The notes under the pieces were generated by a model that made no database searches, was not told the origin of the DNA, and saw nothing but the letters and a program-made list of their open reading frames with translations. A stretch of 64,000 nucleotides of DNA, from positions 6,727-70,726 of the forward strand of contig CAZZNP010000002.1 in NCBI GenBank assembly GCA_964655785.1, in the 5' to 3' direction. Of the stretch, positions 21,821 to 45,509 are shown piece by piece. The position numbers and the translations under genes were made by a program. Position 1 is the stretch's first letter. Each line of letters begins with the position of its first letter. Source of the DNA: an uncultured Gemmatimonadota bacterium. Lineage in GTDB: Bacteria; JAAXHH01.

Positions 21821-21870
21821 CCCAGCACCGTGGGGCTACACTAGGAATCTTTCGTTACAGGAAAACAGCC

Positions 21871-22485: not shown

Positions 22486-22493
22486 AATCCGGT

Positions 22494-22676: not shown

Positions 22677-22956
22677 TCCGGTCAGGCAAGGTGGTGATTC
22701 CGCACATTCCCGGAACCGGAATTTCCCGGCAGGTGGGGCGGACCCCGCAGGCCTTCAGCTGAAGAATCGTCGAAAAGCCGGCCCGGCGTGGGGAATCGGG
22801 GTTCAGAATAGGCCCGTTTTTTGACATTCCGGGCCACTCGGCAAGGGTGAAACACGTAACAGATCACTGTACGGCCCGAAATGGATGGGATCAGGATGCA
22901 TTTGGCAGCCAGATCGGCAAACCGAAGTACCTGAATCCGCCCGGCCGGTAGAACAC

Positions 22957-25900
22957 TCAGTCAAACAGATCACGTCCCCCATGTGTAGGGGGCCCGGTTT
23001 CTACCGGCACTGCCTGATCCGGCAGCAAGCCGGAGACGATCTCCTCGATTTCCCGGCCAGCGTCACTTGAGTGGACAGCGGCTCGAATCGCCTTTGATAT
23101 GCCAACCTGGCTCATCCCGGGTTTCCCTGCAAGGGCTTCACTGGCTGCCTCCTGTGCCAGTTTCTCGGTTTCCTCGCACAGCTTCGCCAGTCGCCGGTGT
23201 TGATCGATATCTTTGTTGAAACAGGGTATCGGGACCTTCCACCACGGATGAAGATGAAAGTCCCTGCCGCTCCCTCTGCATTGCCTGAAGGCCGTTTCCA
23301 GGCATGCGGCATTCAGCAGGGCAACCAGATATCCGGCTTCTTCCTTGTCCCGCACAGCCATCCAGTAAAGTTTCGAGCTCACAACAAAATTGCCAGTCGT
23401 TATCCTTGCAGCCCGCATGATGTCCCCGGAGGTTGGATAGAGAACAATCCATCCGTTGGTGTTTTCAGAGTCGAGTTGTGCCGACAGCTTTGACTGGAAA
23501 TCGAATTGCTTAAGTAAGGCCTTCGGCGTCGATTTCCCCTTTCCTGCCCTGCTTTCGTAGATCTCGTCCAGTTCACGCCAGAATGAACATTCATTGCCGG
23601 GGTTCTCAAGCAAGAATCCCTTTGTGTCCACCGGCACGATGCCCTTCACAGGCCGCACCGGGGGGATGTACGCCACCATCTCGGTTGAAGTAAGAACCGG
23701 ACGTACCCAGTGTGCCGGCATCAATCCGGTCTGGGGCCTGACCTCTTTCCACGGTTCCTTTGTCGATCGCATTGTCGTGACACGGACCATGCCTTCATGA
23801 TTCGGTCCTTCGATTTCATCCAACAGCGCAAGCACGTGGGGAACCAGTGTCGCGCCCTGCTTAATCATGACCGAATTCAGATATCCGGACTTCTTCTGCG
23901 GAAGCTGGGCGGGAGCCTCGCTGAATCCGAATTTCCGCCTGGCCGATTCCAGGGACTCTGATGACTTCGGACGTACGCCCCTGACCTTCAGCCGGGCTTC
24001 CAGTGTGCCGGGGCTGATGCCTTCGGATATATCGAACGCACAGTGCTCCATCAGTAGGCAACTGCGGGTTGCATCACCGCTACCGAATGGCTGCAACTGC
24101 TCCAGGTCGACCGATTGCCGCAAGGTGTTTCGATGAACTGACCGGAACGGCTCCCATTGCCCAGCAGCGATGGCGGATTTCTTCACCAGCCAGGATGCGG
24201 GGTTGCTCTCCGGTTTGGCCATGTAAAGCTTCCTGGCCGCCAGAATGAAATAGCTGGCGATATCGGAGTGAGGGGCCTGTTTCCCGGCACCGGTCAGACC
24301 CAGAGACCTGCCGTACTGTTCCAGAGTTCTCTTCCGGTCCGTGGCCTGTATCTCCGCCAGCTTCACCCAGGGTGGATTGGCCACGATCCGATCGACCTTT
24401 TTCTGTGCCAGAAGGTGGGGAGCGGCGATGTTGATCGTGTACCAGGTCCAGACCGAGTTGCCCTCGGCAGCAATGATCTCGGTCAGGGCCTGGTGGCAAT
24501 GTTCCAGCCGCTCGGATTCCACTTCCGACAGGGATTCCTTCAGGAACCCGGGCAATGGTTGACCCGCGGTCGCGGCACTGACAATCTCACGCATGTCGTT
24601 GGCAAACGTCCCTCTCCGGACGAATTTCATGGGGACCCGTATCTCCCTTTTTTCCGGAGTCTCGACCCTCATCAGGTCCTCGGTGTGTTCGAACAGGGAC
24701 TTCTGGTTTCCGGAATCGGCCTGCAGAGAATCACCCAGGTGCACCTGGAACGACTGGCCGCCCATGGTCGGCGGCGCCGGCAGGATCCTCTCCAGGTTCA
24801 CGCGTGCGAGTTCCACTGCCACGGGATGGATGTCGATCCCGTTGACCAGGCGTGAAACGATGTCGGCCCGCTGCACCGGTGTGAATGACTGCATTGACTT
24901 TGACGCCAGCAAACGGCGGGCCGCATGGAGAAGGAACGTGCCGGAACCGCAGGTGGGGTCGAGAACCCCGACTCCCCGAACTTCCGTACCACCGCGGATG
25001 GAGGCTATCGCGGCATTGATGGCCCGCTCCATCCATTGCTCGTCGAGAACCTCCTCCACCATCAGTGCAGCCAGCCAGTCCGGGGTGTAGAATTCACCGA
25101 AGACCTTCCGATCATGCGCGCTCACGTTATGATGGTACAGGCTGCGCAGGACATCTTCCTCGCGCCTCCGCCAGTCGTACGAGGTAACAAGCCTGTACAG
25201 TTTCCCTGCCCACTTCCGCCCACGCTCGAATTCCAGCACCCATGCGGCGAAACCATCACGTACCGCCGTCTTCCAGTCCGAACCCGAATTGGCCGGAAAC
25301 AGGGAGTGGGAAACCAGGCGGACCACTGCGATCAGGAAGCTGTGGGTGACGAACAGCCTGTCCTTCCCGGCTTCGTCGCCGGGAACCATGCCGGACGTTC
25401 GCATCATGTCCAGCCAGAGATCCCTTTTGGTCCGGGTAGGTCCTGCTGCATTAGCGGGAAGCGCAGCGTAAAGGCTGAAGAGTTCATTCCTGAGGGAGGT
25501 GAAGAGTGCTCCCGGATCCCCCGGTATCCACTCCTTGCCGAAATTCCTTTCGGCCAGAAGCGAGTGGAGGAATTCGGCCAAGGGAAGGGCCTCGTTCATG
25601 AATCTCAGGGGCGATCCGACAGGTTCCCCGATGGATTGAGGCCGATGGCTGTATTCATACACGTGCCAGTGCCGGCCGTCGGTCACAATGCCCACCCAGT
25701 TGCTCCGGACGAACTCAACGTCGTCGAAGGGAATCCTGCCCAATTCCCGGTTGATCTCGCCGATGACGTAACGGTCCAGCTGTTGCCGCGGCGACTCCGA
25801 CAGCCTTCCTTGCTGGGGTTTGTCAGGCTCTGCCGCCAGCGGATATGCCTTCAGCTCGATGAATGTCCTGCGATTGGGCAGATAAATGTCCGCCTCGCCG

Positions 25901-26067
25901 TCAACAGTCGTGTAGTGGGATTCGATCGACCCGACCTTGATTTCCCGAAGCAGGGCCTCAAGATCGGACTGCAGGTTGCCTTCCCTTTCGTGCCGCTCAA
26001 GGGGGTGGTTGAGAAACGCGGATGCAGCATCGAGGACTGCCTGACCCGGTGGCTTGCCCCGGGTCAT
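22957..26067 (-). CDS. Type IIG (MmeI-like) restriction-modification enzyme: N-terminal PD-(D/E)xK nuclease, gamma-class N6-adenine methyltransferase and C-terminal target-recognition region
   Basis: N-terminal D-x10-ELK (GEADIYLPNRRTFIELKAY). MTase motif I GVLDPTCGSGTFLLHAA and motif IV IVANPPWVKL. A 1036-aa single polypeptide. Confidence 0.8.
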   Translation of the reverse strand: MTRGKPPGQAVLDAASAFLNHPLERHEREGNLQSDLEALLREIKVGSIESHYTTVDGEADIYLPNRRTFIELKAYPLAAEPDKPQQGRLSESPRQQLDRYVIGEINRELGRIPFDDVEFVRSNWVGIVTDGRHWHVYEYSHRPQSIGEPVGSPLRFMNEALPLAEFLHSLLAERNFGKEWIPGDPGALFTSLRNELFSLYAALPANAAGPTRTKRDLWLDMMRTSGMVPGDEAGKDRLFVTHSFLIAVVRLVSHSLFPANSGSDWKTAVRDGFAAWVLEFERGRKWAGKLYRLVTSYDWRRREEDVLRSLYHHNVSAHDRKVFGEFYTPDWLAALMVEEVLDEQWMERAINAAIASIRGGTEVRGVGVLDPTCGSGTFLLHAARRLLASKSMQSFTPVQRADIVSRLVNGIDIHPVAVELARVNLERILPAPPTMGGQSFQVHLGDSLQADSGNQKSLFEHTEDLMRVETPEKREIRVPMKFVRRGTFANDMREIVSAATAGQPLPGFLKESLSEVESERLEHCHQALTEIIAAEGNSVWTWYTINIAAPHLLAQKKVDRIVANPPWVKLAEIQATDRKRTLEQYGRSLGLTGAGKQAPHSDIASYFILAARKLYMAKPESNPASWLVKKSAIAAGQWEPFRSVHRNTLRQSVDLEQLQPFGSGDATRSCLLMEHCAFDISEGISPGTLEARLKVRGVRPKSSESLESARRKFGFSEAPAQLPQKKSGYLNSVMIKQGATLVPHVLALLDEIEGPNHEGMVRVTTMRSTKEPWKEVRPQTGLMPAHWVRPVLTSTEMVAYIPPVRPVKGIVPVDTKGFLLENPGNECSFWRELDEIYESRAGKGKSTPKALLKQFDFQSKLSAQLDSENTNGWIVLYPTSGDIMRAARITTGNFVVSSKLYWMAVRDKEEAGYLVALLNAACLETAFRQCRGSGRDFHLHPWWKVPIPCFNKDIDQHRRLAKLCEETEKLAQEAASEALAGKPGMSQVGISKAIRAAVHSSDAGREIEEIVSGLLPDQAVPVETGPPTHGGRDLFD

Positions 26068-26208
26068 ATTTCCGCACCGCCGGCAGTGTGCGGGGTACCG
26101 AGTCCTGAATTGTCGGCCGACCCTCCGGCGTCATGGGCGCCGGTGACGTGAAATTGATGGGATTGACTGGAAGGAAGTCGGGAACCGGGTTCAGCCGCTA
26201 CATATAAT

Positions 26209-29075: not shown

Positions 29076-29906
29076 TCATCTGGAAGCCCCGAAAGAGCCG
29101 CTGATCATGTCCCGTAGGAATACGCCGCCGACCTCTTCGTGATTCGGGCCATAGAAACGCCCCTGGATGCCCGTACCGCTGAACACGCCGGAGTCGTCGA
29201 TGGGCAGTCCATCCCATTCGATCGAAGGACGGGTAATGCCGGTGGAGGTGTACGCGATGTCCGTGAAGGACACGTCGATGGCCGGAAGATTGAAATCCGG
29301 AATATCCAGTTCTGCAGAACCATCGACTCGCTGGCCAATGGTGTCGCTCATGGAGACGTCCACCCCAACCATGATCCCATTCCATGAAGCGCCCCCGGAT
29401 ACTGGCCTGGAGTCACTCGCCTTGCCGATTGACCAGGTGGCAACACCCCATGATTGATCGTCGATCATGGATTCACTGGCAACCAGGTCCTCAAGGATGT
29501 TGTGGTTATTCCTGACATAGAACATGCTGTACTCCATCCAGCCGGCATAGTCGCGGTAATCCGTCCGGGTGGTCTGAGTCAGGCTGCCGACGACCGGCTT
29601 GGGGCCGGTCTGAAAAATGGCTTCGGCCCTGTGAACACCGGCTTCAATGCCAAGATACTCGAGAGAACGAGAGAAGATGACATCTGCCTGGAAGCCGTTG
29701 CTGAAGCTGGTTCCCCCAAGTTGCCATTGATTGGCGTTCCGCGAGGTGATGCCTGCGTGGATGACCGTATCTGCAGCACCAGCCAGTTCCAGGATGGAAT
29801 CGGAAATGTCATCGGAACTCAGATGGGTTGATTTGGCCCCTCCCCCGCAACCGGCGAGGGATATGGCTGCAAGAAGGGTCAGAATTCTTCCTGGATTGGT
29901 AAGCAT
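29076..29906 (-). CDS. Surface-lipoprotein-type protein with a TbpB/fHbp-like C-terminal 8-strand beta-barrel handle domain
   Basis: Signal peptide and lipobox MLTNPGRILTLLAAISLAGCGG (start at 29906, GGAG RBS). C-terminal GIQGRFYGPNHEEVGGVFLRD...SGSFGASR matches the handle-domain end motif of Slam-dependent lipoproteins. Confidence 0.6.
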   Translation of the reverse strand: MLTNPGRILTLLAAISLAGCGGGAKSTHLSSDDISDSILELAGAADTVIHAGITSRNANQWQLGGTSFSNGFQADVIFSRSLEYLGIEAGVHRAEAIFQTGPKPVVGSLTQTTRTDYRDYAGWMEYSMFYVRNNHNILEDLVASESMIDDQSWGVATWSIGKASDSRPVSGGASWNGIMVGVDVSMSDTIGQRVDGSAELDIPDFNLPAIDVSFTDIAYTSTGITRPSIEWDGLPIDDSGVFSGTGIQGRFYGPNHEEVGGVFLRDMISGSFGASR

Positions 29907-30277: not shown

Positions 30278-33200
30278 TCATCGCCGGGCACCACAACGGT
30301 TGATAATTTCGGAACTAAGGCTGAAGCACAGACGCGGGCCACAGGTAAGGATCAAAGGATTCAGGTGAGGCAAGGTATACTGCTGTGGCTGCTGAATGTT
30401 TCTGCCATAAAAATTGGCTCCGTTCGGTCCAACCACTTCGTAGATACTCCAGATTCCGCATGACGACCCTGAGTCAGCAAAAAACAGCAGTTCATTGATG
30501 TTGTAAACGGAAGAATCGCTGCAGTCTCCGGGTTGTGTGTGACTGTAACTGGCATAATCCAGTCCTCTACGCTGGGTGACGCCCACGGAAACCCGGATTC
30601 CCATGCTGTAATCCCAGGTTTCAGCCCCGCAAAATGCAGTGCATGTACTGGCATTCCAACCTGCTCTCGGATCCAGGTCGTCCGGACGTGGGCATACTGG
30701 TGGCGGCGCCGCGTCGTTGTCCCGGACGGTGACGGACGCAGACGAACGCGATCCCACGGTGTAACCGCTTCCGACGGCGATCAGAGCCCCGACCTGCCCG
30801 TCCGGCTCGTCGTTCGCATCATCCACGGTGGGAACGGAGTACGTGACAACTGTGTGCCTAGCGGGAAGAGTAACGGCGTTCGGTCCTTCGACGGACGATG
30901 CCAGGAAATCCGAAGTCGCGTCATCCGACACGGTCAGGCCAATGACGATGGGCGCGGCGGATCCCAGGCTGGCCTCGAGGGTGAATACCGCATTGCCACC
31001 TTCGGTGACGGGGACACCGCCCCTGATGCTGATTTCAGGCGTGCTTGGGGGCGCCGCGTCATTGTCCCGGACGGTGACGATGGCGGACGACGGGGAGCCT
31101 GTCGTGAAGCCGCTGCCGCCCGTGATCCTGGCCGAGACCTGGCCGTCCGGCTCGTCGTTCGTATCATCGATGGTGGGAACGGAGTACATAGCGATCGTGC
31201 TCCCTGCGGGCAGCGTGACGGTACTGGGGCCTTCGGTCGAAGACGCCAGGTAATCGGAAGTGGCGTCATCGGAAACATTCAGGCCGATAGTGATTGCCGC
31301 GGTGGACGTCCGGTCGGCCGTGACGGTGAAGACCGCGTTACCGCCCTCGGTCACCGAGACGCCCCCGCGGATGGTGATTACGGGCAAGACAGGGGACGCC
31401 GCGTCATTGTCGTGGACGGCGACGGTGGCGGACGACGGGGAGCCTGCCGTGTAGCCGCTGCCGCTCGCGATCCTGGCCGAGACCTGCCCGTCCGGCTCGT
31501 CTGCACTGTCGTCCTCTGTGCGTACGGAATACGTGGCCGATCTTGCTCCCGCCGGAAGTGTGACGGACTTGCGCCCCTCGCTGGTCGATGCCAGGAAATC
31601 GGAAGCGGCGTCATCCGAGACGTCCAGGCTGACGCTGATGGCCGTGGCGGATGCCCGGCTGGCACGCAGGGTGAACGCCGCAGTGCCGCCCTCGGTGACA
31701 GCACTGCCCCCGGTAATGGTGATTGCGGGTATCGCCGGCAGCGGCGCATCGTTGTCCCGGACGCTGACGTACGCGGACGAGGGAATACCGGTGGTGTAGG
31801 AGGAGCGCCCGGTAATCCGGACAGTGACCCGCCCGTCCGGTTCATCGGTGGTGTCATCCACCGTGGGCACGGAATACCGCACCGTCGTGGCCCCTGCAGG
31901 AAGGGTCACGCTTCGGTGACCCTCGCTGGACGATGCCAGGAAATCGGAGGTGGAGTCATCCGAGACGTCCAGGCTGACGCTGATGGCCGTGGTGGAGGCC
32001 CGACTGGCCCGCAGTGTGAACACCGCGTTGCCGCCCTCGGTGACGGCGCTGCCCCCGGCGATGGTGATTACGGGCTTGACGGACGGCGCCGAATCGTTGT
32101 CCCTGACGATGATGGACGCGGAGCGCGATCCGATGGTGTAGCAAGGGGAACCGACGATGCGCACCGTGATGATCCCATCCGGCTCGTCGACGCTGTCGTT
32201 TTCCGTGAGCACGGCGTACGTGGCCGATCTCCCCCCCGCCGGCAGGCTGACGGTCTTGCGGCCTTCCGCGGACGCTGCCAGGAAATCGCCCGAAGCATCA
32301 TCCGAAACGTCCAGGCTGACGCTGACGGCCGAGGCGGACGTCCTGTTCGCCCGTATGGTGAACGAGGCCCTTCTTCCCTCGACGATCGCACCGTGGCCGC
32401 CGATGCTGATCACGGGTTTCGGGGACGGCGTTCCGGGGCAATCGTTGTCGCTGATGCCGACGGACGCGGATTCGGGCGCGTAGGGGACATAGCCGGATCC
32501 GCTCAGGACGCGCGCGGTGACCTGCCCGTCCGGTTCGTCGATGGCGTCATCCACCGTCGGCACGGTCCAGGTGACGGAGGAGGTCCCGCCGGGGAACGTG
32601 ACGGTCTTCCTGCCTTCGTCCCCCGCCGCCACGAAATCCGCCGACGCATCGTCCGAAACGGAAAGCGCGACGGTCGCCGCCGAGGAAAAGGGAACCGTGG
32701 GCCTGAGCGTGAAAACCGCATTGCCGCCTTCCGTGACCGCACTTCCTCCGGTGATGGAGACGCCGGGCACGGCCGGGGGCAGCGTCGGAGGCGGGAGCGT
32801 GTCCGTCGGGCTCCAGGCGACGCAGGACGGGACGCCGCCGCTGATGGCGAGCAGCTGGTCCGGACTGCAGTTGAGGCCCGCCAGCCGGACGAGGAACCGG
32901 GCGCGGTCCCGGTCGAGGACCTCCCCGCCGATGACGAGCCGCTCGTTGATCAGGAATCTGTCGACGTCCTCGATATCGTTGCCGCCCAAATTGAGATCGC
33001 CGGCCATGTCCCGGGTGCCGTCCCGGACGAGCAGTTCCTGGACCCGGTCGCCGGGCTCGTGTCCGGGGATCGGGATCTCGATCTCGACGACGGATGTCGT
33101 CCCCGCCCTCGCCTGCCCGGGAAATTCGGATCGCACCTCGGCGGCGAGCCGTGCATCCAGCAGGTCGGTCCGGATGACGATCGGCAACGTCGGGTGGTTG

Positions 33201-33553
33201 GGCGGTGTTGGCGCATCCAGTTCAAGCAACTGCCCCACGCCGTTGCGGGCGTTGGCCGCCAGGACCGGGGCCAGGGCGGAGAGGTCGGACATGGAGGAAG
33301 GCCAGGTGTTGTTGTTCTCGAGGCGCCAGGAATACAGAACCTCCGCAGTTGCGATGATGATATCACGGGTGCTGTCGACCTTTGCTTTCTCCAGTTCGCC
33401 GAGTTCCCTGTGGTACCAGGCGGCGACCATGAGGGACACGACCAGGGCCGCGCCGGTGGCGGCGAGCAGGGCGAAACCGCGCTGCCGGCCGAGCGGGCCG
33501 GTGGAGCCGGTTTCGATGTTGCGGGACACGGATGGGTCATGTGATGGTTTCAT
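30278..33553 (-). CDS. pilV: PilV-like type IVb minor pilin/adhesin, long variant with eight Calx-beta-like repeats and a Cys-rich C-terminal domain
   Basis: N-terminal region paralogous to the upstream short PilV-like protein (MKPSHDPS...RGFALLAATGAALVVSLMV, then ...EIEIPIPGHEPGDRVQELLVRDGTRDMAGDLNLGGNDI...). Eight ~100-aa repeats each contain ...TEGGNAVFTL...SDD..SDF...VP(T/I)(V/I)DD..DEPDG.V(T/S)(A/V)R. The ORF-track N-terminal extension to 34132 was rejected because it overlaps the upstream gene. Confidence 0.6.
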   Translation of the reverse strand: MKPSHDPSVSRNIETGSTGPLGRQRGFALLAATGAALVVSLMVAAWYHRELGELEKAKVDSTRDIIIATAEVLYSWRLENNNTWPSSMSDLSALAPVLAANARNGVGQLLELDAPTPPNHPTLPIVIRTDLLDARLAAEVRSEFPGQARAGTTSVVEIEIPIPGHEPGDRVQELLVRDGTRDMAGDLNLGGNDIEDVDRFLINERLVIGGEVLDRDRARFLVRLAGLNCSPDQLLAISGGVPSCVAWSPTDTLPPPTLPPAVPGVSITGGSAVTEGGNAVFTLRPTVPFSSAATVALSVSDDASADFVAAGDEGRKTVTFPGGTSSVTWTVPTVDDAIDEPDGQVTARVLSGSGYVPYAPESASVGISDNDCPGTPSPKPVISIGGHGAIVEGRRASFTIRANRTSASAVSVSLDVSDDASGDFLAASAEGRKTVSLPAGGRSATYAVLTENDSVDEPDGIITVRIVGSPCYTIGSRSASIIVRDNDSAPSVKPVITIAGGSAVTEGGNAVFTLRASRASTTAISVSLDVSDDSTSDFLASSSEGHRSVTLPAGATTVRYSVPTVDDTTDEPDGRVTVRITGRSSYTTGIPSSAYVSVRDNDAPLPAIPAITITGGSAVTEGGTAAFTLRASRASATAISVSLDVSDDAASDFLASTSEGRKSVTLPAGARSATYSVRTEDDSADEPDGQVSARIASGSGYTAGSPSSATVAVHDNDAASPVLPVITIRGGVSVTEGGNAVFTVTADRTSTAAITIGLNVSDDATSDYLASSTEGPSTVTLPAGSTIAMYSVPTIDDTNDEPDGQVSARITGGSGFTTGSPSSAIVTVRDNDAAPPSTPEISIRGGVPVTEGGNAVFTLEASLGSAAPIVIGLTVSDDATSDFLASSVEGPNAVTLPARHTVVTYSVPTVDDANDEPDGQVGALIAVGSGYTVGSRSSASVTVRDNDAAPPPVCPRPDDLDPRAGWNASTCTAFCGAETWDYSMGIRVSVGVTQRRGLDYASYSHTQPGDCSDSSVYNINELLFFADSGSSCGIWSIYEVVGPNGANFYGRNIQQPQQYTLPHLNPLILTCGPRLCFSLSSEIINRCGARR

Positions 33554-33567
33554 GGGTCTGGTCGGGA

Positions 33568-34425
33568 TCATGGCGATGTCGGCGGACAGGCGGGCGGCGG
33601 CGGACAGGGAGGGCACGGGCAGAGCGCGCCGCAGGTCGCACAGGACGGGGACCAGCAGGACGCCGTGGTGCCGCTGATGGTCACTCCGGTGGCGCAGCCG
33701 AGGCCGGCCGCGCCGTTCAGGAAACGGACGATGTTCGGGGAGACGGGATTGCCGCCGATCTCGACTTCGGTGTTGACGCGCACCTCTTCGGCGTTGCTGA
33801 TGTCGTTGGTTGCAAGGCCGAGGTCCCCGGTCATGTCCCGGGAGCCGTCGAGGCGAAGGAGCGAGTCCCTGGCGGGCTCGTGTCCCGGGACGGGAACCTC
33901 GATGGATACGACGCTCCCGGTCCTTGTCGCCAGGCCCAGGAACTCCCGCTCGAGGAGTTCGGCGAAGTCCGCATCCTCCATGTCCGTCTCGATGACGATG
34001 GGGGCGTTCGAAGTCGCCGGCGTCGGCACACGGAAGGAGTATGGCTTGCCAACGCCGTTCCGGCCTCCCGGGGGCGTGGTATTGGCGAAAGCGGGTGCGT
34101 AGGCGGCCAGGGCTGCGAAGTCGGCGGGCCATGCAGCCGGCTCCGGTGGCGTCTGCGATGGAAATTCGCTGATGCGGTATGCGGAAACGGCCTCGGCCAG
34201 GATCAGCATGCCCGCCCGGGTATTGTCGATCTGTGCGCTGGCGAGGGACCGGTCGAGTTCCCGGGTGAACAGACCCACCAGCATGGCGGTCACGAACAGG
34301 ACGGCGGTCGCCTCGATGAGGCTGAAGCCGCCTTGACGGGAAAGGAGGGAAAGGCGGAATCGGTACGGGTCGGCCGTGGACTGACCAACCGGCGATGCGC
34401 CGGTGCTGGGGTGGCTCCGGTTCAT
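33568..34425 (-). CDS. pilV: PilV-like type IVb minor pilin (short variant) with a prepilin-type N-terminus
   Basis: Prepilin cleavage/methylation motif QGGFSLIEATAVLFV. The central domain ...SIEVPVPGHEPARDSLLRLDGSRDMTGDLGLATNDI... is shared with the long variant. Confidence 0.65.
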   Translation of the reverse strand: MNRSHPSTGASPVGQSTADPYRFRLSLLSRQGGFSLIEATAVLFVTAMLVGLFTRELDRSLASAQIDNTRAGMLILAEAVSAYRISEFPSQTPPEPAAWPADFAALAAYAPAFANTTPPGGRNGVGKPYSFRVPTPATSNAPIVIETDMEDADFAELLEREFLGLATRTGSVVSIEVPVPGHEPARDSLLRLDGSRDMTGDLGLATNDISNAEEVRVNTEVEIGGNPVSPNIVRFLNGAAGLGCATGVTISGTTASCWSPSCATCGALCPCPPCPPPPACPPTSP

Positions 34426-34736: not shown

Positions 34737-35861
34737 TCACGCGACATCGACGTTGCCGCTGCCGCCCCAGCCCAGCTGCCCGGCCAGATGGGAAATGGCG
34801 TCCGGGAAGAGCAGCCAGGCGATCGCCGCTCCGGCGAGCCAGGGGCCGAGGGGCACGAGCCGCGCCGGACTGCTCCTGCCGATGAGGATCAGGAAACCGT
34901 GCGTGACGAGTGCGGCGCCGGTGGCCAGGATCGCGACCTGGAGGAGGCCCGCGATGCCGGCCCACGCGCCGATCGCGGCGGCCAGCTTGCAGTCGCCGAG
35001 GCCGAGACCGGCACGGCCGGTGATCCGGAACCATCCCTCCCGGAAGACCCGGAATATGCAATAGCCGGAAGCGGCGCCAATGACGGCCTGGTCGAGGGGC
35101 ACGAACCCGCCATGTATGTTTGCCGAGAGCCCGAACCACGTCAGCGGCAGAACCAGGACATCCGGCAGGACGAGGTGCTCGATGTCGATCACGGCGAGGG
35201 AAAGCAGCACTGCCGCGAAGACCAGCGCCGCGGGGACCACGGGATCGTAGCCGTAGCGCCAGTGGATCATGGTGAACAGGACGGCCGTCAGGAGCTCGAC
35301 GACGGGATACCGCACCGGGATCGGCCGGCCGCAGCAGGCGGTCCGGCCGTGGAGCCACAGCCATCCGATCACGGGCGTCGCCAGCAACCCCGGAATGGGG
35401 GTGCGGCAGTGGATACACAGGGACCGCCCCGTGGCGAAATCCGGCGGAAGATCCTCCAGTTCCCGGTCAGCGGCCTGGATATAGTCCAGCTCCGCCCAGG
35501 CCCGCGCCCGGGCAAGCCTGACTTCCCTGGGGGGAGTCCGGGAAATGATGACATTCACAAGCCCCCCGATGACGAGGCCGAACAGGAACGAGGTTGCCAA
35601 CTGCTGCAGCGTAAGCGGCTGCCCGGCAACGGTGCTCCAGGCGGTCATCCAGTCGATCATGCTTCTGCCCCCGGAATCCGGCATCAGCCCCTGCAGCGCC
35701 TGGAGGGTATGCAGGCCGTGGGGATCGTTGGCCAGGAACAGGGCGAGGCCGAGGATGATAACCCCCATGGCCAGCGAAACCAGGCGCCCCGTATTTTCAG
35801 GGATGATTGTCATGGGCTTCCTGTTGCGGCTGCCTGCGGGATTCCGGGTATTCATCGGCAT
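34737..35861 (-). CDS. Prepilin peptidase (A24 family, PilD/PilU-like). The true start is probably an internal Met (MTII or MGVIILG).
   Basis: Cys pairs CIHCRTPIP...CCGRPIP. Polytopic membrane profile and the catalytic-region motif GLGDCKLAAAIGAWAG. Confidence 0.75.
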   Translation of the reverse strand: MPMNTRNPAGSRNRKPMTIIPENTGRLVSLAMGVIILGLALFLANDPHGLHTLQALQGLMPDSGGRSMIDWMTAWSTVAGQPLTLQQLATSFLFGLVIGGLVNVIISRTPPREVRLARARAWAELDYIQAADRELEDLPPDFATGRSLCIHCRTPIPGLLATPVIGWLWLHGRTACCGRPIPVRYPVVELLTAVLFTMIHWRYGYDPVVPAALVFAAVLLSLAVIDIEHLVLPDVLVLPLTWFGLSANIHGGFVPLDQAVIGAASGYCIFRVFREGWFRITGRAGLGLGDCKLAAAIGAWAGIAGLLQVAILATGAALVTHGFLILIGRSSPARLVPLGPWLAGAAIAWLLFPDAISHLAGQLGWGGSGNVDVA

Positions 35862-36440: not shown

Positions 36441-36983
36441 TCAGTTGATCTGGAACGTCAGGGTATAGGGTCCGGACCCTGCGCAGGCGGGCGCGGGAGA
36501 CGCCTTGACCGCCTTGATGTTCTTTACGCGGGCCTCGATCTGCTCGCATCCCTCCTGGGAATCGAACTCGTAGGTGATCTCGGCGTCCGCGTCGGAGTTC
36601 TTTTCGACGATGGTGATGTCCAGGCCATAGGCGTTCTCCTCGACGCCGTCGGTGTATTTCTGCAGGCCGTAGCCCTCGTCCTTCAGCTTGGTGACGGTGA
36701 TGCCGTCGTAGTCGCCGTTGATGGTCCGGAACTTCTGGCCGGCGATGATCAGGTCGACGGCCTCGGAATAGGACTGCTCCACGTTGGTGTTGAAGAACAT
36801 CTCCTGGATCTTCGGGATCGCGAACGCGATCACGATGGCCCCGACCGCGAGCACGGCCAGGGCCTCGACCAGGCTGAACCCGGCAAAGCGGTGGGCCGGA
36901 TGGAGCACGGCCCCGGTGGCTGCGGGTACGGTCGACGCGGATGCGGACGCTGCGGATGGATCGATGGTTGCGGATGTGTTCAT
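36441..36983 (-). CDS. pilS: Type IVb major pilin (PilS-like) with a prepilin N-terminus
   Basis: AGFSLVEALAVLAVGAIVIAFAIP prepilin motif after a ~30-aa leader. C-terminal Cys pair. Confidence 0.7.
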   Translation of the reverse strand: MNTSATIDPSAASASASTVPAATGAVLHPAHRFAGFSLVEALAVLAVGAIVIAFAIPKIQEMFFNTNVEQSYSEAVDLIIAGQKFRTINGDYDGITVTKLKDEGYGLQKYTDGVEENAYGLDITIVEKNSDADAEITYEFDSQEGCEQIEARVKNIKAVKASPAPACAGSGPYTLTFQIN

Positions 36984-38811: not shown

Positions 38812-40425
38812 TCAGGTCCCTCCGGATGCCGGAACGGCGGCGCTTTCCCTGACGCCGGCGCTCCACTCCCCGATGATCGCCTCGGTCAGCTCGGGATCGA
38901 TCAGGCCCGACAGCACCTTGTCCCTCGCGTGCTGCTGCTTGGTCTGGACCTTGAACTGCTCCTGCATGTAGTGCTGAAGCTCCCACAGGCGGTTCCCCGC
39001 GATCAGCTGGTGGGCCTCCTTGCGGTCGAGCCCGAGGGGCAGCACTTCCGCGACGAGGGTCTGGCCGACGACGCCGCCCACGCAGCGGGGATTTCCGGGG
39101 CCGCAGCCGTCCGGGTTGACGTAGCGGGCGGCATCGCCGAACAGGGTCCGGTAGCGGTCCGCGAGGTTTGGATCGGCGGGTTCCTCCCGGCAGCAATCCG
39201 GGCACACCAGCGGCACCAGGTTCTGGTTGACGATGCCCGCGCAGAATTCACGCAGGGTCAGCAGGTGCGGATCGATGCCGAGGTTGGTCAGGCGCGGTAT
39301 CGCGGCCACGCAGCTCTGGGTGTGCAACGTGGAAAACACCCGCTTGCCCTGGATCGCCATGTTCTGCGCCGCCCGGGCCGTACGCTCGTCGCGGATTTCC
39401 CCGAGGACCAGGGCATCCGGATTCTGCCGGACCGTGGAAGCGAGGACCCTGGCGAAGAAAGCCTCGGGATCTTCCCGCCGATGGTCGATTTCGCAGTGGG
39501 TGACGTTGGGGAATTCGACCTCGACCGGGTCGGCGATTTCGATCATCCGCTGTCCGCGGGGGGTGTCCTTCATGAGCGACGCCAGGGTGGTCGACTTGCC
39601 CGAGTTGGTTTCCCCGGTGATCAGAATCAGTCCCCCCGGGCTGCGGCACATTCTGGTGATGTACCCCTGCTGGCGCGGGTTGTATCCCGCCTCGGCCAGG
39701 GGCAGAACGAACTGCGGGTCGCGGATCCGGCAGCTGAGCGCGGCGCCCCGGACCTCCGGCAGGGAATTCGCCCTGACGCGGTAGAGCTTCCCCGCGTGCC
39801 AGTGGGAGAAGGAGGTGTCCGAGGGGGTGATGTCCTCCCAGGAGTCGTTCTCGCTGCGTGAGAACAGGCCCGTGGCGATCTCCTTTCCCGCCTGGGCGGT
39901 CATCCGGTCGATCTCCCGCACCAGGCCGTAGGTGCGGATCGACAGGATGGCCACGTCGTCGAGGTTCCGGATGTCCAGGTAGAAGTCGCTCGCCCTGGCG
40001 TCGATCGCCAGGCCGAGCACGTGGTCCACTGCGAGGTTGGCCTGCCTGGCCGCCCGCACCGTCTCCGAGCCGCTCTTTTTCCGGGGCTGGGCCTGGGACT
40101 GCACCTTCTGGCGGAAATCGTGGGGAGCGAGGTACACGACATTGGCCTCGCCGGCGGACGTGGCCAGCATCTCCCTGAGCGGCTGCAGGAACATGGCGTC
40201 CGTTCCCTCGATTGCGTGCAGCGCGCCCCGGTCGTCGACCAGGACCCGGTCCTGCAGGCTCATGTCGACGACGAACTTGCGCGCCTCCCGGATTTTTCTT
40301 GCGTCGGCTGCAGGCGCATGGACCGTGCCTGGAGGACCGCCCGCAGACGAAGACCCTTCCGGATTTCGCCCGGGCCATCCGTCGGGATTTCGCTGCTTTC
40401 TTTTCAGGATTCTTTTCAGGAACAT
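38812..40425 (-). CDS. pilQ: Type IVb pilus assembly ATPase (PilQ-like, GspE/VirB11 family)
   Basis: Walker A LILITGETNSGKSTTLASL, Asp box RMIEIADPVE and His box RVFSTLHT. 537 aa. Confidence 0.8.
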   Translation of the reverse strand: MFLKRILKRKQRNPDGWPGRNPEGSSSAGGPPGTVHAPAADARKIREARKFVVDMSLQDRVLVDDRGALHAIEGTDAMFLQPLREMLATSAGEANVVYLAPHDFRQKVQSQAQPRKKSGSETVRAARQANLAVDHVLGLAIDARASDFYLDIRNLDDVAILSIRTYGLVREIDRMTAQAGKEIATGLFSRSENDSWEDITPSDTSFSHWHAGKLYRVRANSLPEVRGAALSCRIRDPQFVLPLAEAGYNPRQQGYITRMCRSPGGLILITGETNSGKSTTLASLMKDTPRGQRMIEIADPVEVEFPNVTHCEIDHRREDPEAFFARVLASTVRQNPDALVLGEIRDERTARAAQNMAIQGKRVFSTLHTQSCVAAIPRLTNLGIDPHLLTLREFCAGIVNQNLVPLVCPDCCREEPADPNLADRYRTLFGDAARYVNPDGCGPGNPRCVGGVVGQTLVAEVLPLGLDRKEAHQLIAGNRLWELQHYMQEQFKVQTKQQHARDKVLSGLIDPELTEAIIGEWSAGVRESAAVPASGGT

Positions 40426-40429
40426 GGAA

Positions 40430-41221
40430 CTACCAGGTGATGGGATGGGTCGTGCCGTCGACGTCCAGGGTGATCAGGATGCGGCCGTCGGCCAGGGACC
40501 TGAGCGACGCGAGGCGGACCTCCCGGCCGTGGAAGCGCACCGCCCTGCCCTGCTCCAGATGCGCGCTCATCCCGTCCGCCTCGATCCAGACCGCGGGTTT
40601 GCCGGCTGTTCCCGCAGTTCCTTGTCCGGGCGCGGGGAACTGCACAAACCGTATACCGCTCCGGTCCGGCTCCCAGTCGGGAGCGGAGGTTTCCATGATC
40701 CCATTCTCCACGGGATCCGGAAAACCGTCCGGCACGGGGATTTCCGGCGCCGTCTGCAGGAACAGGGCCATTTCCGCGCGCAGGGACTCCACCTCGGCCC
40801 GCAGTTGCAGGATTTCGCCGTCCCGGCCATAACCACCGGCGGAATCCGCCGGCGGCGGCATCGAGGCCATCGCGGAGCGCCAGCGGTCGTCCGTTGAAAG
40901 GGTGCCGTCCAGGAGCGACAGGATCGGCTGGCGCAGGGGCCGGACCTGTTCCAGGAGCTGGCCGATCTCCGCCAGGGTGGCCAGCAGGTCCCGCTGGCGG
41001 CGGGCCAGGACCAGATCCCGGTCGAGTGCCGCCGCATCGTCGCCGGCCGTGAATCCGGCGGGAACGCCCGCATCTGCGGCCTGGTGGCTGTCCGCATGGA
41101 TTGCACCTGCAGATCCCATGGCGAGGATTCCCCCGAGGAAAAATGCGCAACAGGTTTTCCCGGTTTTTGCGGCTGTGCCGATCCGATTTCCGGCGCCCAT
41201 GATGGTGTTCAGGATATTCAT
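40430..41221 (-). CDS. PilP-like pilus assembly protein (hypothetical)
   Basis: Position between the pilQ-like and pilO-like genes. N-terminal signal-like segment. No firm motif. Confidence 0.4.
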   Translation of the reverse strand: MNILNTIMGAGNRIGTAAKTGKTCCAFFLGGILAMGSAGAIHADSHQAADAGVPAGFTAGDDAAALDRDLVLARRQRDLLATLAEIGQLLEQVRPLRQPILSLLDGTLSTDDRWRSAMASMPPPADSAGGYGRDGEILQLRAEVESLRAEMALFLQTAPEIPVPDGFPDPVENGIMETSAPDWEPDRSGIRFVQFPAPGQGTAGTAGKPAVWIEADGMSAHLEQGRAVRFHGREVRLASLRSLADGRILITLDVDGTTHPITW

Positions 41222-41258: not shown

Positions 41259-42614
41259 CTAAAAGGAAAGAATCTCGAGGTGAATCGCGCAGGACTGCGG
41301 GCGCCATTCGCCCAGGGCGCAGTCCGCGCTGACCAGCGTGCCGGGCAGGCCCCGTACGCCTTCGGCAAGGATGCGCAGTTCGCCAACCGCGGCGTCCCCG
41401 AGGTCCGCCCGCCATCCGGTCCTGGTCAGTTCCCGGGTGAAAGTGTTCGCTTCCTGATCAATCCGCCGGGGCAGTTCCGTGGGACCGGACGCGAAGGCGA
41501 TGTCATGGGGCAGTCCGGCCATGTGCCGGATCACCGCGACGGAGTCCGTCTCCGGAACCCTCGGCGCCCCGGCCGGCATGTTGGCCGGCAGGGAAACGGA
41601 CCAGCCCCCGGGAGTGAACCGGAACGCCCCGCCGTTGCCGGCGGCCAGGGCCTCGGCTGCCGATGGATACCGCCTGGGCTGGCTTCTTCCTTCCAGGTGG
41701 AGTTCCCCGCCGGCGTATCCGAACCGGGCGATGCCGTCCCCGTAGAGCCCTTCCGCCCGGGACAGCCAGACGGACAGCCGGACGAGTTCGCCTGCCGCGC
41801 CGTGGGGCACTTCCGGGACGATTTCGCGCATCTCCGGCATCTCGACTTCCACCACGGGTCTGTCGGCCAGGCCGAGGAATGCCAGCACGCCTCTGACGAG
41901 CGACTCCACCGGGGCGTCGGCCAGGTCGATCTCCCCGGCCATTTCCATCGCCGGCCGAAGCATGAGCAGACCCACGACGGAGATTGCCGCCAGGCCCATC
42001 AGGAGGAAATGACTGGCATGGAAAAGGCCGCTGCGGGCGAAGGCCAGCGGGAGCGGCTGCAGGCGGATGCCGACCAGGGAGAACGGCGCCCGCTCCATCG
42101 GCACGGCGGCGTCCACCTCCCCGGCGGTGCCCGCGGGCCGGTCCCCGACCTGCCAGGCAAACACGGGCAGCCCGGGGGAGGCCTCCCCGGTCACCCGGGC
42201 GAGGGCCTGGTCCGCCGGCAGCACCCGTTCGTCGACGATCATGCGCGCGGACACCGTGCACACGTACACCCGCTCGTCGAGCGGCACCAGCACGTAAAAG
42301 TCCGCCGGCCGCGAATCGTCCCCGGGAAACGGCGCACCGTCCCCGGGCTGTTCATCCCCGGGAACGCCTCCGTGCAGCCACCGCATGATGCCGGCGGCGA
42401 TGCAGGCGCCGGACTGCCCCGCGGCCCACCAGTGTTCGGCATGGCCTGCCCGGAGGAACAGCGCCGCACGGGCCCGGTGCTGACGCATGTGGCGGCCAGC
42501 CTGGCGCGATCGGGCGAGGCGGCGCGAGCCCCCGCCGGGCAGGCTGATCAGATTCGCTTCGTAGACCAGCTGGATGCGCCTTCCCCCGATCGAGTCCTTC
42601 ACCGCGTATGACAT
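41259..42614 (-). CDS. PilO-like pilus assembly protein (hypothetical)
   Basis: Position and size (451 aa) match R64/PAPI-1 PilO. Internal TM segment HFLLMGLAAISVVGLLML. Confidence 0.4.
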   Translation of the reverse strand: MSYAVKDSIGGRRIQLVYEANLISLPGGGSRRLARSRQAGRHMRQHRARAALFLRAGHAEHWWAAGQSGACIAAGIMRWLHGGVPGDEQPGDGAPFPGDDSRPADFYVLVPLDERVYVCTVSARMIVDERVLPADQALARVTGEASPGLPVFAWQVGDRPAGTAGEVDAAVPMERAPFSLVGIRLQPLPLAFARSGLFHASHFLLMGLAAISVVGLLMLRPAMEMAGEIDLADAPVESLVRGVLAFLGLADRPVVEVEMPEMREIVPEVPHGAAGELVRLSVWLSRAEGLYGDGIARFGYAGGELHLEGRSQPRRYPSAAEALAAGNGGAFRFTPGGWSVSLPANMPAGAPRVPETDSVAVIRHMAGLPHDIAFASGPTELPRRIDQEANTFTRELTRTGWRADLGDAAVGELRILAEGVRGLPGTLVSADCALGEWRPQSCAIHLEILSF

Positions 42615-42658: not shown

Positions 42659-43837
42659 TCAGTCTCTGGACGCACCGAATGCGCCGACGATGGAACCGTG
42701 CTCGAACACGCCGCCGGCCCCCTGGTGCCGGTCGCCGTAAAACCAGCCATCGAGCCGGCTGTCCGTGGAATCGGACGAGAACGAGCCATGAAGGACCGGG
42801 AGATCACGCCATTCCATGTCATCGACCGTAGCGTCCGAGCCCAGCGTCCGGATACGCGGCCGGATTCCGGTGAAGGAGACATCAACCGAGGGTTCGTCGA
42901 AATCTTCCAGGGTGATCAGGGCCCGCCCGGATACGGCTCCGCCGCCCCGGGAATCCATGCCGACCATCGCCCCGGACCAGCTGGCGGCCCCGTCGAGTTC
43001 CTTTGGATCCGTGCCCGGGAAATGCGGCACCCACGAGATCCCCATCACATCCCCGTCCCCGCCGGGATCCACCACCGCGAATGCGCTCCCGCCGTCCCAC
43101 GCGCCCCAGGCCGTGGCGTCCATGGCGTCTTCCGCGTCTTCAGCACTTTCGGCCACCTCAGGATCGTACTGCCGAACATCCTCCCGGGCGTCTTCCGGCG
43201 GCAGCAGACCCTGCAGGTCGTTCTCAGTGACATGGGTGACCAGAAAATCCGGAGTTGCGCTTCCCAGGCGCTCCCCGTCACGCCAGTCCCAGGGCGCAAG
43301 ATGCCGGCCGGCATGGACCCCCCGCCCCCTGTCCCTTGCCGCCTTCTCCTCCTCGCCGTAATCCGGACGGGAACGGGGGTCGTTGACGGCATGGCCATCA
43401 CGGACCAGGGCCGCACCGAATTCCACGCCGCCGGCGGAGCATGACCCCACGATCCGGTCGTAGCTTCTCTGTCCGGAGTCCGTGCAGCTGACGGTACCAG
43501 CCGAGACCAGCTCCTCGAGGGCCTCCGTCGCGGCCTGCCCGCAGGCCCATTCCATGCCGTCGGCATCCAGGCACGACTGGTCGCTTTCGGGTGCGTCTAA
43601 ACCCCGCAGCCTCCAGCGGTCTCCGCCGAGTTCGATGGTGTCGCCATCGATCACGCGGATTTCCGGGGATTCTTCCATGGATTCGTCTGCCTGGCACTCG
43701 CCCCAGCAGGCGCCTTCGAACGAGCCCCCGCAGGAAACGAGCAGCGCACCCAGCGCCGTCACGCAGGCAATACGGCCAGCTGCCGCCGGTTTCATGTTCA
43801 TAGGGTTGCCTCGCTTGTCTTCTGTGTCATATTTCAA
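42659..43837 (-). CDS. Secreted lipoprotein with an N-terminal thermonuclease (SNase-like) domain fused to a TbpB-like C-terminal beta-barrel handle domain
   Basis: Signal peptide and lipobox MKPAAAGRIACVTALGALLVSCGG. SNase motifs IRVIDGDTIEL, RLRGLDAPESDQ and ...YGEEEKAARDRGRGVHAG. C-terminal RLDGWFYGDRHQGAGGVFEHGSIVGAFGASRD parallels the lipoprotein at 29076-29906. Confidence 0.65.
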   Translation of the reverse strand: MKYDTEDKRGNPMNMKPAAAGRIACVTALGALLVSCGGSFEGACWGECQADESMEESPEIRVIDGDTIELGGDRWRLRGLDAPESDQSCLDADGMEWACGQAATEALEELVSAGTVSCTDSGQRSYDRIVGSCSAGGVEFGAALVRDGHAVNDPRSRPDYGEEEKAARDRGRGVHAGRHLAPWDWRDGERLGSATPDFLVTHVTENDLQGLLPPEDAREDVRQYDPEVAESAEDAEDAMDATAWGAWDGGSAFAVVDPGGDGDVMGISWVPHFPGTDPKELDGAASWSGAMVGMDSRGGGAVSGRALITLEDFDEPSVDVSFTGIRPRIRTLGSDATVDDMEWRDLPVLHGSFSSDSTDSRLDGWFYGDRHQGAGGVFEHGSIVGAFGASRD

Positions 43838-43865: not shown

Positions 43866-45509
43866 TCATCCGCTGCTCCCCACCACGGTGGCTGTGACCA
43901 TCATCACCACCTCCCGCTCCCGGGAACTGCGGTTTCTGGAGGTTCCGAGACCGAAACGGCCGAAGAAGGGAATGCTGGATTTCTCTTCCCGGGTCTCGGA
44001 TTCCGACAGCGAAGCCAGCAGCCTGGTCTCGCCGTCCTTCAGCGAGATCGACAGCAGGCGGTTGAAGTCGTCCGTGATGTGCGTTTCCCCGCGAACGTCC
44101 CCGAAGTTGTAGCTGGTCGTGCCCACCAAGGATGACCGGGAGAAACCGAGGGTGAGTGTGATCCGCCCGTCGACCCTCGCAGTGGGCTGCAGGTGCACCA
44201 CGAGCCCGGTTCTGAGGTCGTCGAACTCGACTTCCGTGGAACGCTGTCCGTCCACCACCTCCTGGCTGATCTTCGAGATGTACTTGCGGGTCCGGGTCAG
44301 GTCCACGCTCGCGATCCGGTTGTTCACGATCTCCACGGTGTCGTCATAGGCGATCGTGGCGTCACCCAGCGTGTCCAGCCACTGGGCCACGGCGCTGCTG
44401 CCGGTCCAGCGCTTTCCGTCTTCCGCGAGCGCGCCGCCGATGGCCGCGCCGCCCTCGCTCCGGATCGTGTCTCCGAAGATACTGGTGGAAGAGCCGTCCC
44501 CTGGCACGGGCAGAACCGCCGCCGTCGACGAGCCGAGCAGGAGTTTCAGGGGCAGTTCCGAGCTTCTCCGGATGAGGTTCAGCGCCAGGTCCCTCTTCTT
44601 CCCGTCACGGAAGTCGACTTCGAACAGGCTCAAGGTGATGCGCACCACCTGGCTCGAGTCCCCATTGAAACGGTCCAGCAGCGCCGCCACCCTGTGCATG
44701 GCGTTCGGCTTGGCCGTCACGACCAGCAGGTTCGCGCTGGGCGCCACCGTCACGGACGTCCTCGGGTCCGCAGCGCCCGAATGGATTTGCCCGGCTTCAG
44801 CGGAAATGCCCCCCGGTTCCGGATCGAACGGCGCGGCAGCGGCACCCGCGCCCCCGGCGCCGAGACCGAGCGCGTTCCGGACCTGGGCGACGATTTCGTC
44901 CGTGTAGGGGTCCAGCCCCAGGCTCATGCCGTTGTCCGCCACGCTGCCGCCACTCTCGTTCAGATTGCGCAACCCGAGGCCCGCGCTGTATTCGCCCGGC
45001 TGGCTGGACAGGGTGAACCAGCGGGTCTCGATGTCGCTGACGAGCACCACGCCATCGTCAATGCTCCAACTCCAGTTCGCCTGGCGCGCGACGGTGTCCA
45101 GATGCTCGCGGATGGTGCGGGCGGAGGGGTCGGGGCGCACCATGGGAATCTCCCACAAGCCGCCGATTTCGAGCTCCAGGCGAACCGGCCGATTCTGCGC
45201 CAGGGCCCGAATGGCGTGGTCGGCACGGAACTCCCGGTAGCGACCCCGGAAGGGAAGGTCCAGCCAGGCCTCCGCCGCGGGCACCCGGATCTCCTCCAAC
45301 TCGTCGAGGCGGTCCCGGGGCCTGCCGCCGGCCAAAGCCTCCTCCCGGATCCGCTCGATCTCCTCCTGTGCGGCTTCCAGGGCGCCGGGGGCGGGCTCAG
45401 CGGCCTCGTCAGTTTTCATCCCGCCGGCGCAGCCGGTGACCAGCAGGATGGCCAGAGAAATGGCCGTATTCGGCATCGTGGAATTCATAATCATCGGTTT
45501 CATGGGCAT
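43866..45509 (-). CDS. pilN: Type IVb pilus secretin lipoprotein (PilN-like)
   Basis: Lipobox LLVTGCAGG. C-terminal secretin-domain motif SSIPFFGRFGLGTSRN. Confidence 0.75.
   Translation of the reverse strand: MPMKPMIMNSTMPNTAISLAILLVTGCAGGMKTDEAAEPAPGALEAAQEEIERIREEALAGGRPRDRLDELEEIRVPAAEAWLDLPFRGRYREFRADHAIRALAQNRPVRLELEIGGLWEIPMVRPDPSARTIREHLDTVARQANWSWSIDDGVVLVSDIETRWFTLSSQPGEYSAGLGLRNLNESGGSVADNGMSLGLDPYTDEIVAQVRNALGLGAGGAGAAAAPFDPEPGGISAEAGQIHSGAADPRTSVTVAPSANLLVVTAKPNAMHRVAALLDRFNGDSSQVVRITLSLFEVDFRDGKKRDLALNLIRRSSELPLKLLLGSSTAAVLPVPGDGSSTSIFGDTIRSEGGAAIGGALAEDGKRWTGSSAVAQWLDTLGDATIAYDDTVEIVNNRIASVDLTRTRKYISKISQEVVDGQRSTEVEFDDLRTGLVVHLQPTARVDGRITLTLGFSRSSLVGTTSYNFGDVRGETHITDDFNRLLSISLKDGETRLLASLSESETREEKSSIPFFGRFGLGTSRNRSSREREVVMMVTATVVGSSG

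Follow-up and report, generated by a model that had tools for sequence, protein, structure and literature searches.

The window that we analyzed is a stretch of 64,000 nucleotides from an uncultured Gemmatimonadota bacterium (contig CAZZNP010000002.1 of assembly GCA_964655785.1). It is part of an integrative conjugative element (ICE) that carries a type IVb conjugative pilus operon. Within that operon, on the minus strand, is a gene that encodes a lipoprotein with two folded parts: an SNase (thermonuclease) domain and a C-terminal handle and barrel. The C-terminal module is predicted to fold like the handle and barrel of the lipoproteins that are translocated by Slam, an outer-membrane protein of type 11 secretion.

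An earlier note on this DNA had reported the nuclease gene as an open reading frame (ORF) at 42659..43837. This minus-strand ORF of 392 amino acids (aa) is present in the window, but position 43837 is an upstream TTG, and translation more likely starts from the ATG at 43801. The gene is then 42659..43801 (minus strand, with its stop codon at 42659–42661) and the protein has 380 aa. The same ATG was chosen by an independent gene call on a Logan metagenome contig, a ribosome-binding site (GCGAGG) lies 8 nt 5' of it, and translation from there yields a textbook lipoprotein signal (MNMKPAAAGRIACVTALGALLVS|C, then GG), so the ATG at 43801 is almost certainly the biological start. Residue numbers below refer to the 380-aa protein unless the 392-aa ORF is mentioned. 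The sequence around the gene is ~67% G+C, and long spurious ORFs overlap it in other frames. The frame of the nuclease lipoprotein itself has homologs with E values down to 2e-179.

Read directly from the sequence, the protein begins with a signal peptide with a lipobox (aa 1–24, MNMKPAAAGRIACVTALGALLVSC; 43730..43801, minus strand, as are the other parts). The lipobox is LVSC, and C24-G25-G26 is at least 90% conserved across the family. Under the E. coli rule, a glycine at position +2, as in this protein, sorts a lipoprotein to the outer membrane. Next is a flexible tether (aa 25–46; 43664..43729); the predicted local distance difference test score (pLDDT) is below 50 for aa 1–31 and 35–42. 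The tether has a CWGEC motif in close relatives and is proline-rich in relatives. The SNase domain (aa 47–163; 43313..43663) is followed by an acidic and partly disordered linker (aa 164–225; 43127..43312; pLDDT below 50 for aa 166–185) that varies in length among the homologs. The C-terminal part of the handle and an eight-stranded beta-barrel of the TbpB/hemophilin/fHbp type make up the rest (aa 226–380; 42662..43126).

The nuclease domain belongs to the SNase family by every criterion that we could compute: sequence threshold, fold, and Ca2+-binding and catalytic residues. It matches Pfam's SNase model (PF00565) with 29.8 bits, against a cut-off of 21 (E = 8.8e-7; aa 76–173 of the 392-aa ORF). 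A profile of the fusion family matches the SNase in the PDB at E = 2.6e-7 in a hidden Markov model (HMM) alignment, and the domain has the OB-type fold of SNase. We took the register of the catalytic and Ca2+-binding positions from this HMM alignment. In 25 aligned homologs, which are 41–76% identical to the window's nuclease lipoprotein, D54, D69, R64, E72, and R116 are invariant; these are the positions of D21, D40, R35, E43, and R87 in SNase. Judging from this conservation, the domain looks catalytically intact. The homologs of the fusion also share four invariant cysteines, which fits an oxidizing, extracytoplasmic location for the protein. With the lipobox, the Pfam match, and the invariant residues, the earlier description of this gene product as a lipoprotein with a micrococcal-nuclease-type domain holds up.

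As for the C-terminal module, handle strands begin near aa 185 in the structure model, and the handle (at about aa 185–260) precedes an eight-stranded barrel (PF01298). The top structural matches of the module are hemophilin, NHBA, fHbp, HpuA, TbpB, LbpB, and PmSLP. The earlier note had pointed to a nuclease motif (EIRVIDGDTIELGGDRWRLRGLDAPE) and to a C-terminal “handle” motif (GWFYGDRHQGAGGVFEHGSIVGAFGASRD). Both strings are present, but the second one falls in the barrel and not in the handle. The note had also found the same module in a second lipoprotein, and this we could confirm. The second lipoprotein (276 aa, lipobox LAGC; 29076..29906, minus strand) is encoded at the 3' end of the pilus operon and terminates in GRFYGPNHEEVGGVFLRDMISGSFGASR; the C-terminal regions of the two proteins are 39% identical over 121 aa (E = 2e-16). 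In the papers on Slam and on the type 11 secretion system (T11SS), this barrel fold is the cargo module (PMC5449769, PMC12282271), and the published architecture of the cargo is an N-terminal effector with a C-terminal barrel (PMC12282271, PMC8406197). The layout of the nuclease lipoprotein, with its nuclease at the N terminus and its barrel at the C terminus, agrees with that architecture.

Two relatives of 641 aa (P0034 and P0035; here and below, L and P numbers are our labels for loci and proteins) have a longer arrangement: a lipobox, a handle/barrel, the nuclease, and another handle/barrel, in that order. This resembles the bilobed layout of TbpB, with the enzyme sitting between the lobes. 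Separately, we noticed giant metagenomic proteins (P0290 with 4105 aa, P0304 with 2461 aa, and many of ~700 aa) that contain 3 to 14 barrel modules each, versus the two lobes in TbpB.

The pilus operon and its element

The nuclease gene was said to lie between pilO and the secretin gene pilN. The upstream neighbor (43866..45509, minus strand) is indeed a lipoprotein secretin (Pfam Secretin and Secretin_N; lipobox LVTGC), and we assign it to the PilN family by its best NCBIfam match (TIGR02520) and by weak BLASTP similarity. The downstream neighbor (41259..42614, minus strand) is a 451-aa protein that is “PilO” by position and size only: it has no match in Pfam or NCBIfam, and BLASTP does not relate it to annotated PilO2. 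Another locus (L002) has a syntenic counterpart with 70% identity. After it come a 263-aa protein in the position of PilP (40430–41221), which is a positional label only, as it has no match in Pfam or NCBIfam either; an ATPase (38812–40425; Pfam T2SSE); a pilin (36441–36983; Pfam N_methyl); a prepilin peptidase (34737–35861; Pfam Peptidase_A24 and A24_N_bact); and a 1284-aa PilV-like protein with matches to repeat domains (30278–34132). All of these are on the minus strand. Only the secretin, the ATPase, the pilin, and the peptidase can be named by NCBIfam or Pfam among the flanking pilus genes, and the ATPase is at most 31% identical to the versions on PLSDB plasmids. By sequence, this pilus cluster is far removed from its cultured counterparts.

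The intergenic gaps that flank the nuclease gene are just 64 and 44 nt, and on its strand we found neither a promoter-like nor a terminator-like site to either side of it, so it is probably co-transcribed with the pilus genes. In an annotated type IVb cluster from a Pseudomonas aeruginosa plasmid (NZ_CP096959.1), PilO2 comes directly after PilN, only 2 nt separate the two, and a nuclease gene is absent; against this canonical order, the window's nuclease gene is an insertion. Because the nuclease lipoprotein has no counterpart at that place in the canonical cluster, it is not a core pilus component by this test, and its place in the operon is as unexpected as the earlier note had thought.

The conjugative-element genes in the window encode TraG_N, TraU, TraC, TraK-like/DUF3438, DUF2895, and ParB-like proteins and a Strawberry-notch-type helicase. 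The helicase (1532 aa) and the ParB-like protein (709 aa) are encoded within 13–14378 (minus strand), together with a DUF2201 metallopeptidase/VWA protein and a MoxR-like ATPase. We tentatively take the genes of this region to be part of the backbone of such conjugative elements.

Two other features of the window caught our attention. First, a prepilin-like leader (GRQRG|FALLAATGAALVV) lies well within the 1284-aa ORF, and translation probably begins farther downstream than the ORF suggests. The protein contains some seven repeats of ~105 aa (ITGGSAVTEGGNAVFTL...DD..DEPDG) with weak hits to PKD, LapA, and DUF5006, and it is a candidate for a giant pilus tip adhesin of the PilV type. Second, the region at 14600–26100 has a low GC content (42–58%, compared to ~65%) and likely carries a defense or restriction island. 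It encodes a radical-SAM/B12-like protein (14604–16256), a HATPase_c_3 protein (16279–17757), a 768-aa DpdB/DndB-like protein that is fused to a Swt1-type HEPN domain (17826–20132), a resolvase, a Uma2 nuclease, and a 1036-aa protein that resembles type IIG restriction-methylases (22957–26067).

Distribution of the fusion

The fusion of nuclease and barrel is rare yet conserved as a family. In a collection of 5.8 billion sequences, about 37 full-length homologs retain both domains, and the family comprises about 10 clusters at 50% identity. HMMER searches over 1.84 billion representatives gave 35,286 hits. About 10 of these representatives match the profile from end to end, and the remaining hits are nuclease-only proteins or multi-lobe barrel proteins. 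All of the sequences in the fusion family are from uncultured organisms. They include relatives in Binatia chromosomes (OZ241976.1 and OZ253480.1 among them) and on a contig that is labeled Poribacteria. The fusion is also carried by a circular contig of 4.99 Mb (ERZ25068511:ctg61309, with P0009) and by the genome to which OZ219786.1 belongs.

We did not find the fusion in any of the plasmids in PLSDB: none of the 2875 matching records covers 80% or more of the query. The nuclease alone is found in these 2875 records, 1979 of which are conjugative, and its usual annotation is “thermonuclease family protein.” In the IncX5 plasmid CP124771.1, for instance, a thermonuclease gene is just downstream of genes for virB proteins and the type IV coupling protein.

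The association of the fusion family with conjugative elements, which are of three mating-pair types, is strong but not exclusive. The window shares the slot between the secretin and the 451-aa protein with two other loci (L002 and L085). In L002, the fusion is 71% identical to the window's protein and the flanking pilus genes are 64–83% identical, so the fusion and the structural pilus genes diverge at similar rates. In four loci with Dot/Icm-like conjugation clusters (L004, L008, L009, and L010), the fusion is in a fixed slot between the pilus genes and the genes for TcpQ, DotD, TraI, and the ATPase. Five short metagenome contigs repeat this pattern. Our loci with the fusion inside a Dot/Icm-like cluster that has pilus genes are L004, L008–L010, and L097–L102. 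The fusion is also found 3.4 kb from a coupling protein and a TrwC relaxase (L001); ~6 kb from the F-type genes traL/E/K/B/V (L088); next to genes for a T2SSE ATPase, an integrase, and a RepC-like protein (P0034, at 10001–11926 of L086); and in a defense-like island (L087). Still other members are in plain metabolic neighborhoods (L003, L007, and the Binatia chromosomes L012 and L080); members in ordinary chromosomal sites come from Binatia and from a gammaproteobacterial metagenome-assembled genome (MAG).

Some of these contigs, and others, contain additional copies of the barrel. In the Dot/Icm-like cluster of an alphaproteobacterial MAG (L008), there are three consecutive barrel-like stretches (8486–8953, 9374–9946, and 10001–10894), and the last of these is the nuclease fusion. 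A 263-aa protein of the barrel family (P0069) is encoded at 10001–10792 of a 75-kb plasmid-like contig (L093). Its neighbors are VirB-type transfer genes, RepA, and MobA, and the barrel module is thus carried by a fourth conjugation type as well. An identical copy of P0069 is on a 3.8-Mb contig (L094), with transposases on both sides.

Possible roles

We tentatively favor the view that this protein is an outer-membrane nuclease that is placed on the surface by the host's Slam and cuts extracellular nucleic acid around the mating pilus. Sec would export the lipoprotein, and after lipidation Lol would take it to the outer membrane. A Slam that is encoded elsewhere in the host would then flip it to the cell surface; the handle and barrel would be the part of the cargo that Slam, or type 11 secretion outer-membrane proteins more generally, recognize. 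There, the tethered and Ca2+-dependent SNase-type nuclease would cut extracellular DNA or RNA near the pilus and the secretin. This could prevent sticky extracellular DNA from clinging to the retractile mating pilus and could stop foreign nucleic acid from being drawn in. The nuclease would be an accessory of the element's mating apparatus and not a structural component of the pilus. The observations that we computed and that this view builds on are the identities of the domains, the conserved catalytic residues, the lipobox, the conservation of the family, and the co-linear place in the pilus operon. Cutting extracellular DNA, which the earlier note had proposed, is a reasonable function. The note had also mentioned the degradation of neutrophil extracellular traps, and nothing in our analysis points to these.

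The involvement of Slam is suggested by relatives of the barrel. A search with a profile of the barrel recovers many small MAG proteins with PF01298. On a circular contig of 4.04 Mb (L092, P0068), two PF01298 genes are followed directly by a gene with TPR and PF04575 (SlipAM) domains, and a TonB-dependent receptor is nearby. The Slam-adjacent protein of this contig is 37% identical to the handle/barrel of the window's nuclease lipoprotein over 175 aa (E = 9e-23) and 36% identical to the second lipoprotein over 198 aa (E = 9e-36). Two longer barrel loci from a metagenome scan (L105 and L106) have hits to the Slam HMM 3–7 kb away. Thus, in three other loci, barrel relatives (33–37% identity) are beside Slam genes, and because of this we infer, plausibly in our view, that Slam displays the nuclease as well. 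The barrel subfamily recurs in two settings: next to Slam genes, and within conjugative clusters that lack Slam.

Several results weigh against this view. The nuclease lipoprotein is below the curated cut-offs for the cargo families (17 bits versus 26 for TbpB_B_D and 13.2 versus 80 for slam_lipo), so its assignment to the cargo module rests on structure and on homologs, some of which have precomputed PF01298 hits. The search of the C terminus against TbpB- and HpuA-type domains that the earlier note had proposed therefore has a split outcome: HpuA and TbpB are among the structural matches, but the family models are not reached. Also, we found no Slam/DUF560 protein (PF04575) among the large ORFs of the window, which covers 64 kb of the 102-kb source contig, and no Slam gene within ~10 kb of the fusion in eight contexts that were annotated with Pfam. 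A tblastn search that used a real Slam as its query had no hits in the window or the other loci, and an HMM built from 107 Slam homologs had no hit in the window and 94 loci (1.68 Mb), although this HMM represents one clade and could miss divergent Slams. A mobile element cannot rely on a compatible Slam in every new host. In the cited T11SS papers, Slam is described only in Proteobacteria, yet the fusion has relatives in Binatia and on the contig labeled Poribacteria. Finally, the fusion family is not bound to pili, as some of its members have ordinary metabolic genes as neighbors. On the other hand, a survey of Slams found that a protein with a lipobox adjoins only ~52% of them (PMC5449769), so adjacency to Slam is common and not required. 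Overall, the nuclease lipoprotein resembles Slam cargo in its architecture, its fold, and its Slam-linked relatives, and departs from it in the curated thresholds and in the lack of a neighboring Slam.

The lack of a Slam in the window, or in any neighborhood of the fusion that we examined, would be expected if the nuclease faced the periplasm. It might sit on the inner face of the outer membrane, by the secretin, and destroy incoming transforming DNA or the genomes of pilus-dependent phages; the barrel would then be a spacer or a docking module instead of a signal for Slam. A mechanism that is independent of Slam would benefit elements that change hosts, the nuclease gene is directly after the secretin gene, and thermonuclease genes with signal peptides are common on conjugative plasmids, as the PLSDB counts above illustrate. 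Periplasmic DNases that are carried by ICEs or prophages and that block transformation are established (reviewed in PMC12378983), and the nuclease would resemble the ICE-borne IdeA and SxnA. However, a periplasmic enzyme has no need of a handle and barrel, and the plasmid nucleases lack them. Also, the closest relatives by structure and by sequence are surface or secreted cargo of Slam, some of them encoded beside Slam genes. Nor did PADLOC have a matching family at E ≤ 0.001 for the fusion, the second lipoprotein, or the “PilO” protein. We consider a periplasmic guard to be possible but somewhat unlikely.

We think it is unlikely that the nuclease is simply a cargo gene that benefits the host, by scavenging extracellular DNA for phosphate and nucleotides or by remodeling biofilms, with the pilus operon supplying only its expression. 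This would account for the family members in ordinary chromosomal neighborhoods (in Binatia and the gammaproteobacterial MAG), and in L001 a 5'-nucleotidase-type gene (Metallophos and 5_nucleotid_C) is two genes away from the fusion. Furthermore, the known cargo of Slam is mostly for nutrient capture (PMC8406197, PMC12282271). But the gene is embedded in, rather than appended to, the pilus and transfer operons of two conjugation types, at conserved positions, and it diverges at about the pace of the structural pilus genes.

The protein might instead bind nucleic acids at the surface, as an adhesin or a receptor, without cutting them. SNase folds are reused for binding in Tudor-SN proteins, which are among the structural matches of the nuclease lipoprotein. 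The invariance of all of the catalytic and Ca2+-binding residues across the 25 homologs makes this very improbable. The earlier note had further proposed that the nuclease processes DNA at the mating junction. Such a role, as an essential step in conjugation, is suggested only by the location in a conjugation-linked operon and is hardly credible: the relaxase handles the transferred DNA in the cytoplasm, and this DNA then passes through the secretion channel, so an exported lipoprotein is in the wrong compartment, the annotated type IVb cluster lacks such a gene, and some family members are in chromosomal sites away from conjugation genes.

We also considered a toxin-immunity pair and rejected it, as no small immunity-type gene follows the nuclease gene and the protein is exported instead of cytoplasmic.

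Returning to the surface nuclease that we favor, we can extend it to a broader and more doubtful proposal. Conjugative elements of several mating types would have recruited Slam-type surface lipoproteins into their mating apparatus, with the nuclease as a pilus-associated guard that would degrade any DNA or RNA pulled toward the secretin as the type IVb pilus retracts, transforming DNA and the genomes of pilus-dependent phages included, and with display depending on a Slam of the host. The element may have two such Slam-type lipoproteins, the nuclease and a hemophilin-like one, at the two ends of the pilus operon. If this is true, then compatibility with Slam would help to set the effective host range of the element, and the nuclease would count both as a new kind of mobile-element defense at the level of the envelope and as a new, enzymatic class of cargo for type 11 secretion. 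More generally, cargo genes are found on mobile elements without a nearby translocator, and one may ask whether these elements need the Slam of their host.

Comparison with known systems

The window's pilus genes resemble the clusters for type IVb thin pili (R64 pilI-V, PAPI-1 pil2, and NZ_CP096959.1), which have a PilN-family lipoprotein secretin, an ATPase, a pilin, a prepilin peptidase, and a PilV-like protein in the same order. They differ in that NZ_CP096959.1 lacks the nuclease and in that the proteins in the window's PilO and PilP positions are not recognizable by sequence. In open-access text, we did not find any published description of a nuclease-barrel fusion in a pilus operon.

SNase-type nucleases that are held at the surface by a membrane anchor are known from Staphylococcus aureus (Nuc2; PMC3994088) and, as membrane nuclease lipoproteins, from mycoplasmas. 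These are not linked to conjugation, and because those organisms do not have an outer membrane, their nucleases have no Slam-type barrel.

The SNase/thermonuclease family, including the versions on conjugative plasmids, shares its fold, its catalytic residues, and its export with the window's protein, and the plasmid versions are sometimes next to transfer genes. The ParB nuclease of RP4/RK2 belongs with this family as well. The plasmid thermonucleases match only the nuclease part of our query, so the fusion to a barrel is absent from them. We found no assigned role for the exported thermonuclease genes that are common on conjugative plasmids. The version in the pilus operon, with its apparent surface address, suggests a hypothesis, namely that the enzyme removes extracellular nucleic acid at the mating pilus or keeps it out.

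Other DNases that are encoded by mobile elements block natural transformation: IdeA (from ICE VchInd5), SxnA (from SXT), and Dns (from CJIE1) (PMC12378983). Like these, the window's protein is an exported nuclease on an integrative element, as it has a signal peptide and an SNase domain and is encoded in the same window as TraG_N, TraU, TraC, and TraK-like proteins. According to the same review, IdeA is periplasmic and Dns is periplasmic or extracellular; no lipid anchor or barrel module is mentioned for them (PMC12378983).

Finally, the known cargo of Slam and the T11SS (TbpB, LbpB, fHbp, HpuA, NHBA, the hemophilin HphA, and PmSLP) have an effector that binds a ligand, while the effector here is a nuclease-type enzyme. 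Also, there is no Slam nearby here, and the gene is embedded in the conjugative pilus operon of a mobile element. The verified cargo in the T11SS papers are adhesins, hemophores, and metal- or host-factor-binding proteins. None of the terms “nuclease,” “SNase,” and “thermonuclease” appears in the main text of the cargo survey, and “nuclease” is absent from the survey of Slams and their surface lipoproteins. Among the top full-text matches in open-access papers, we did not find any that combine “Slam-dependent” with “nuclease.” SNase and the cargo module are each known; what is new is that the effector on the display module is of the nuclease class and that the genomic setting is unexpected. 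If our reading is correct, a nuclease on the cargo module would widen the range of what type 11 secretion displays.

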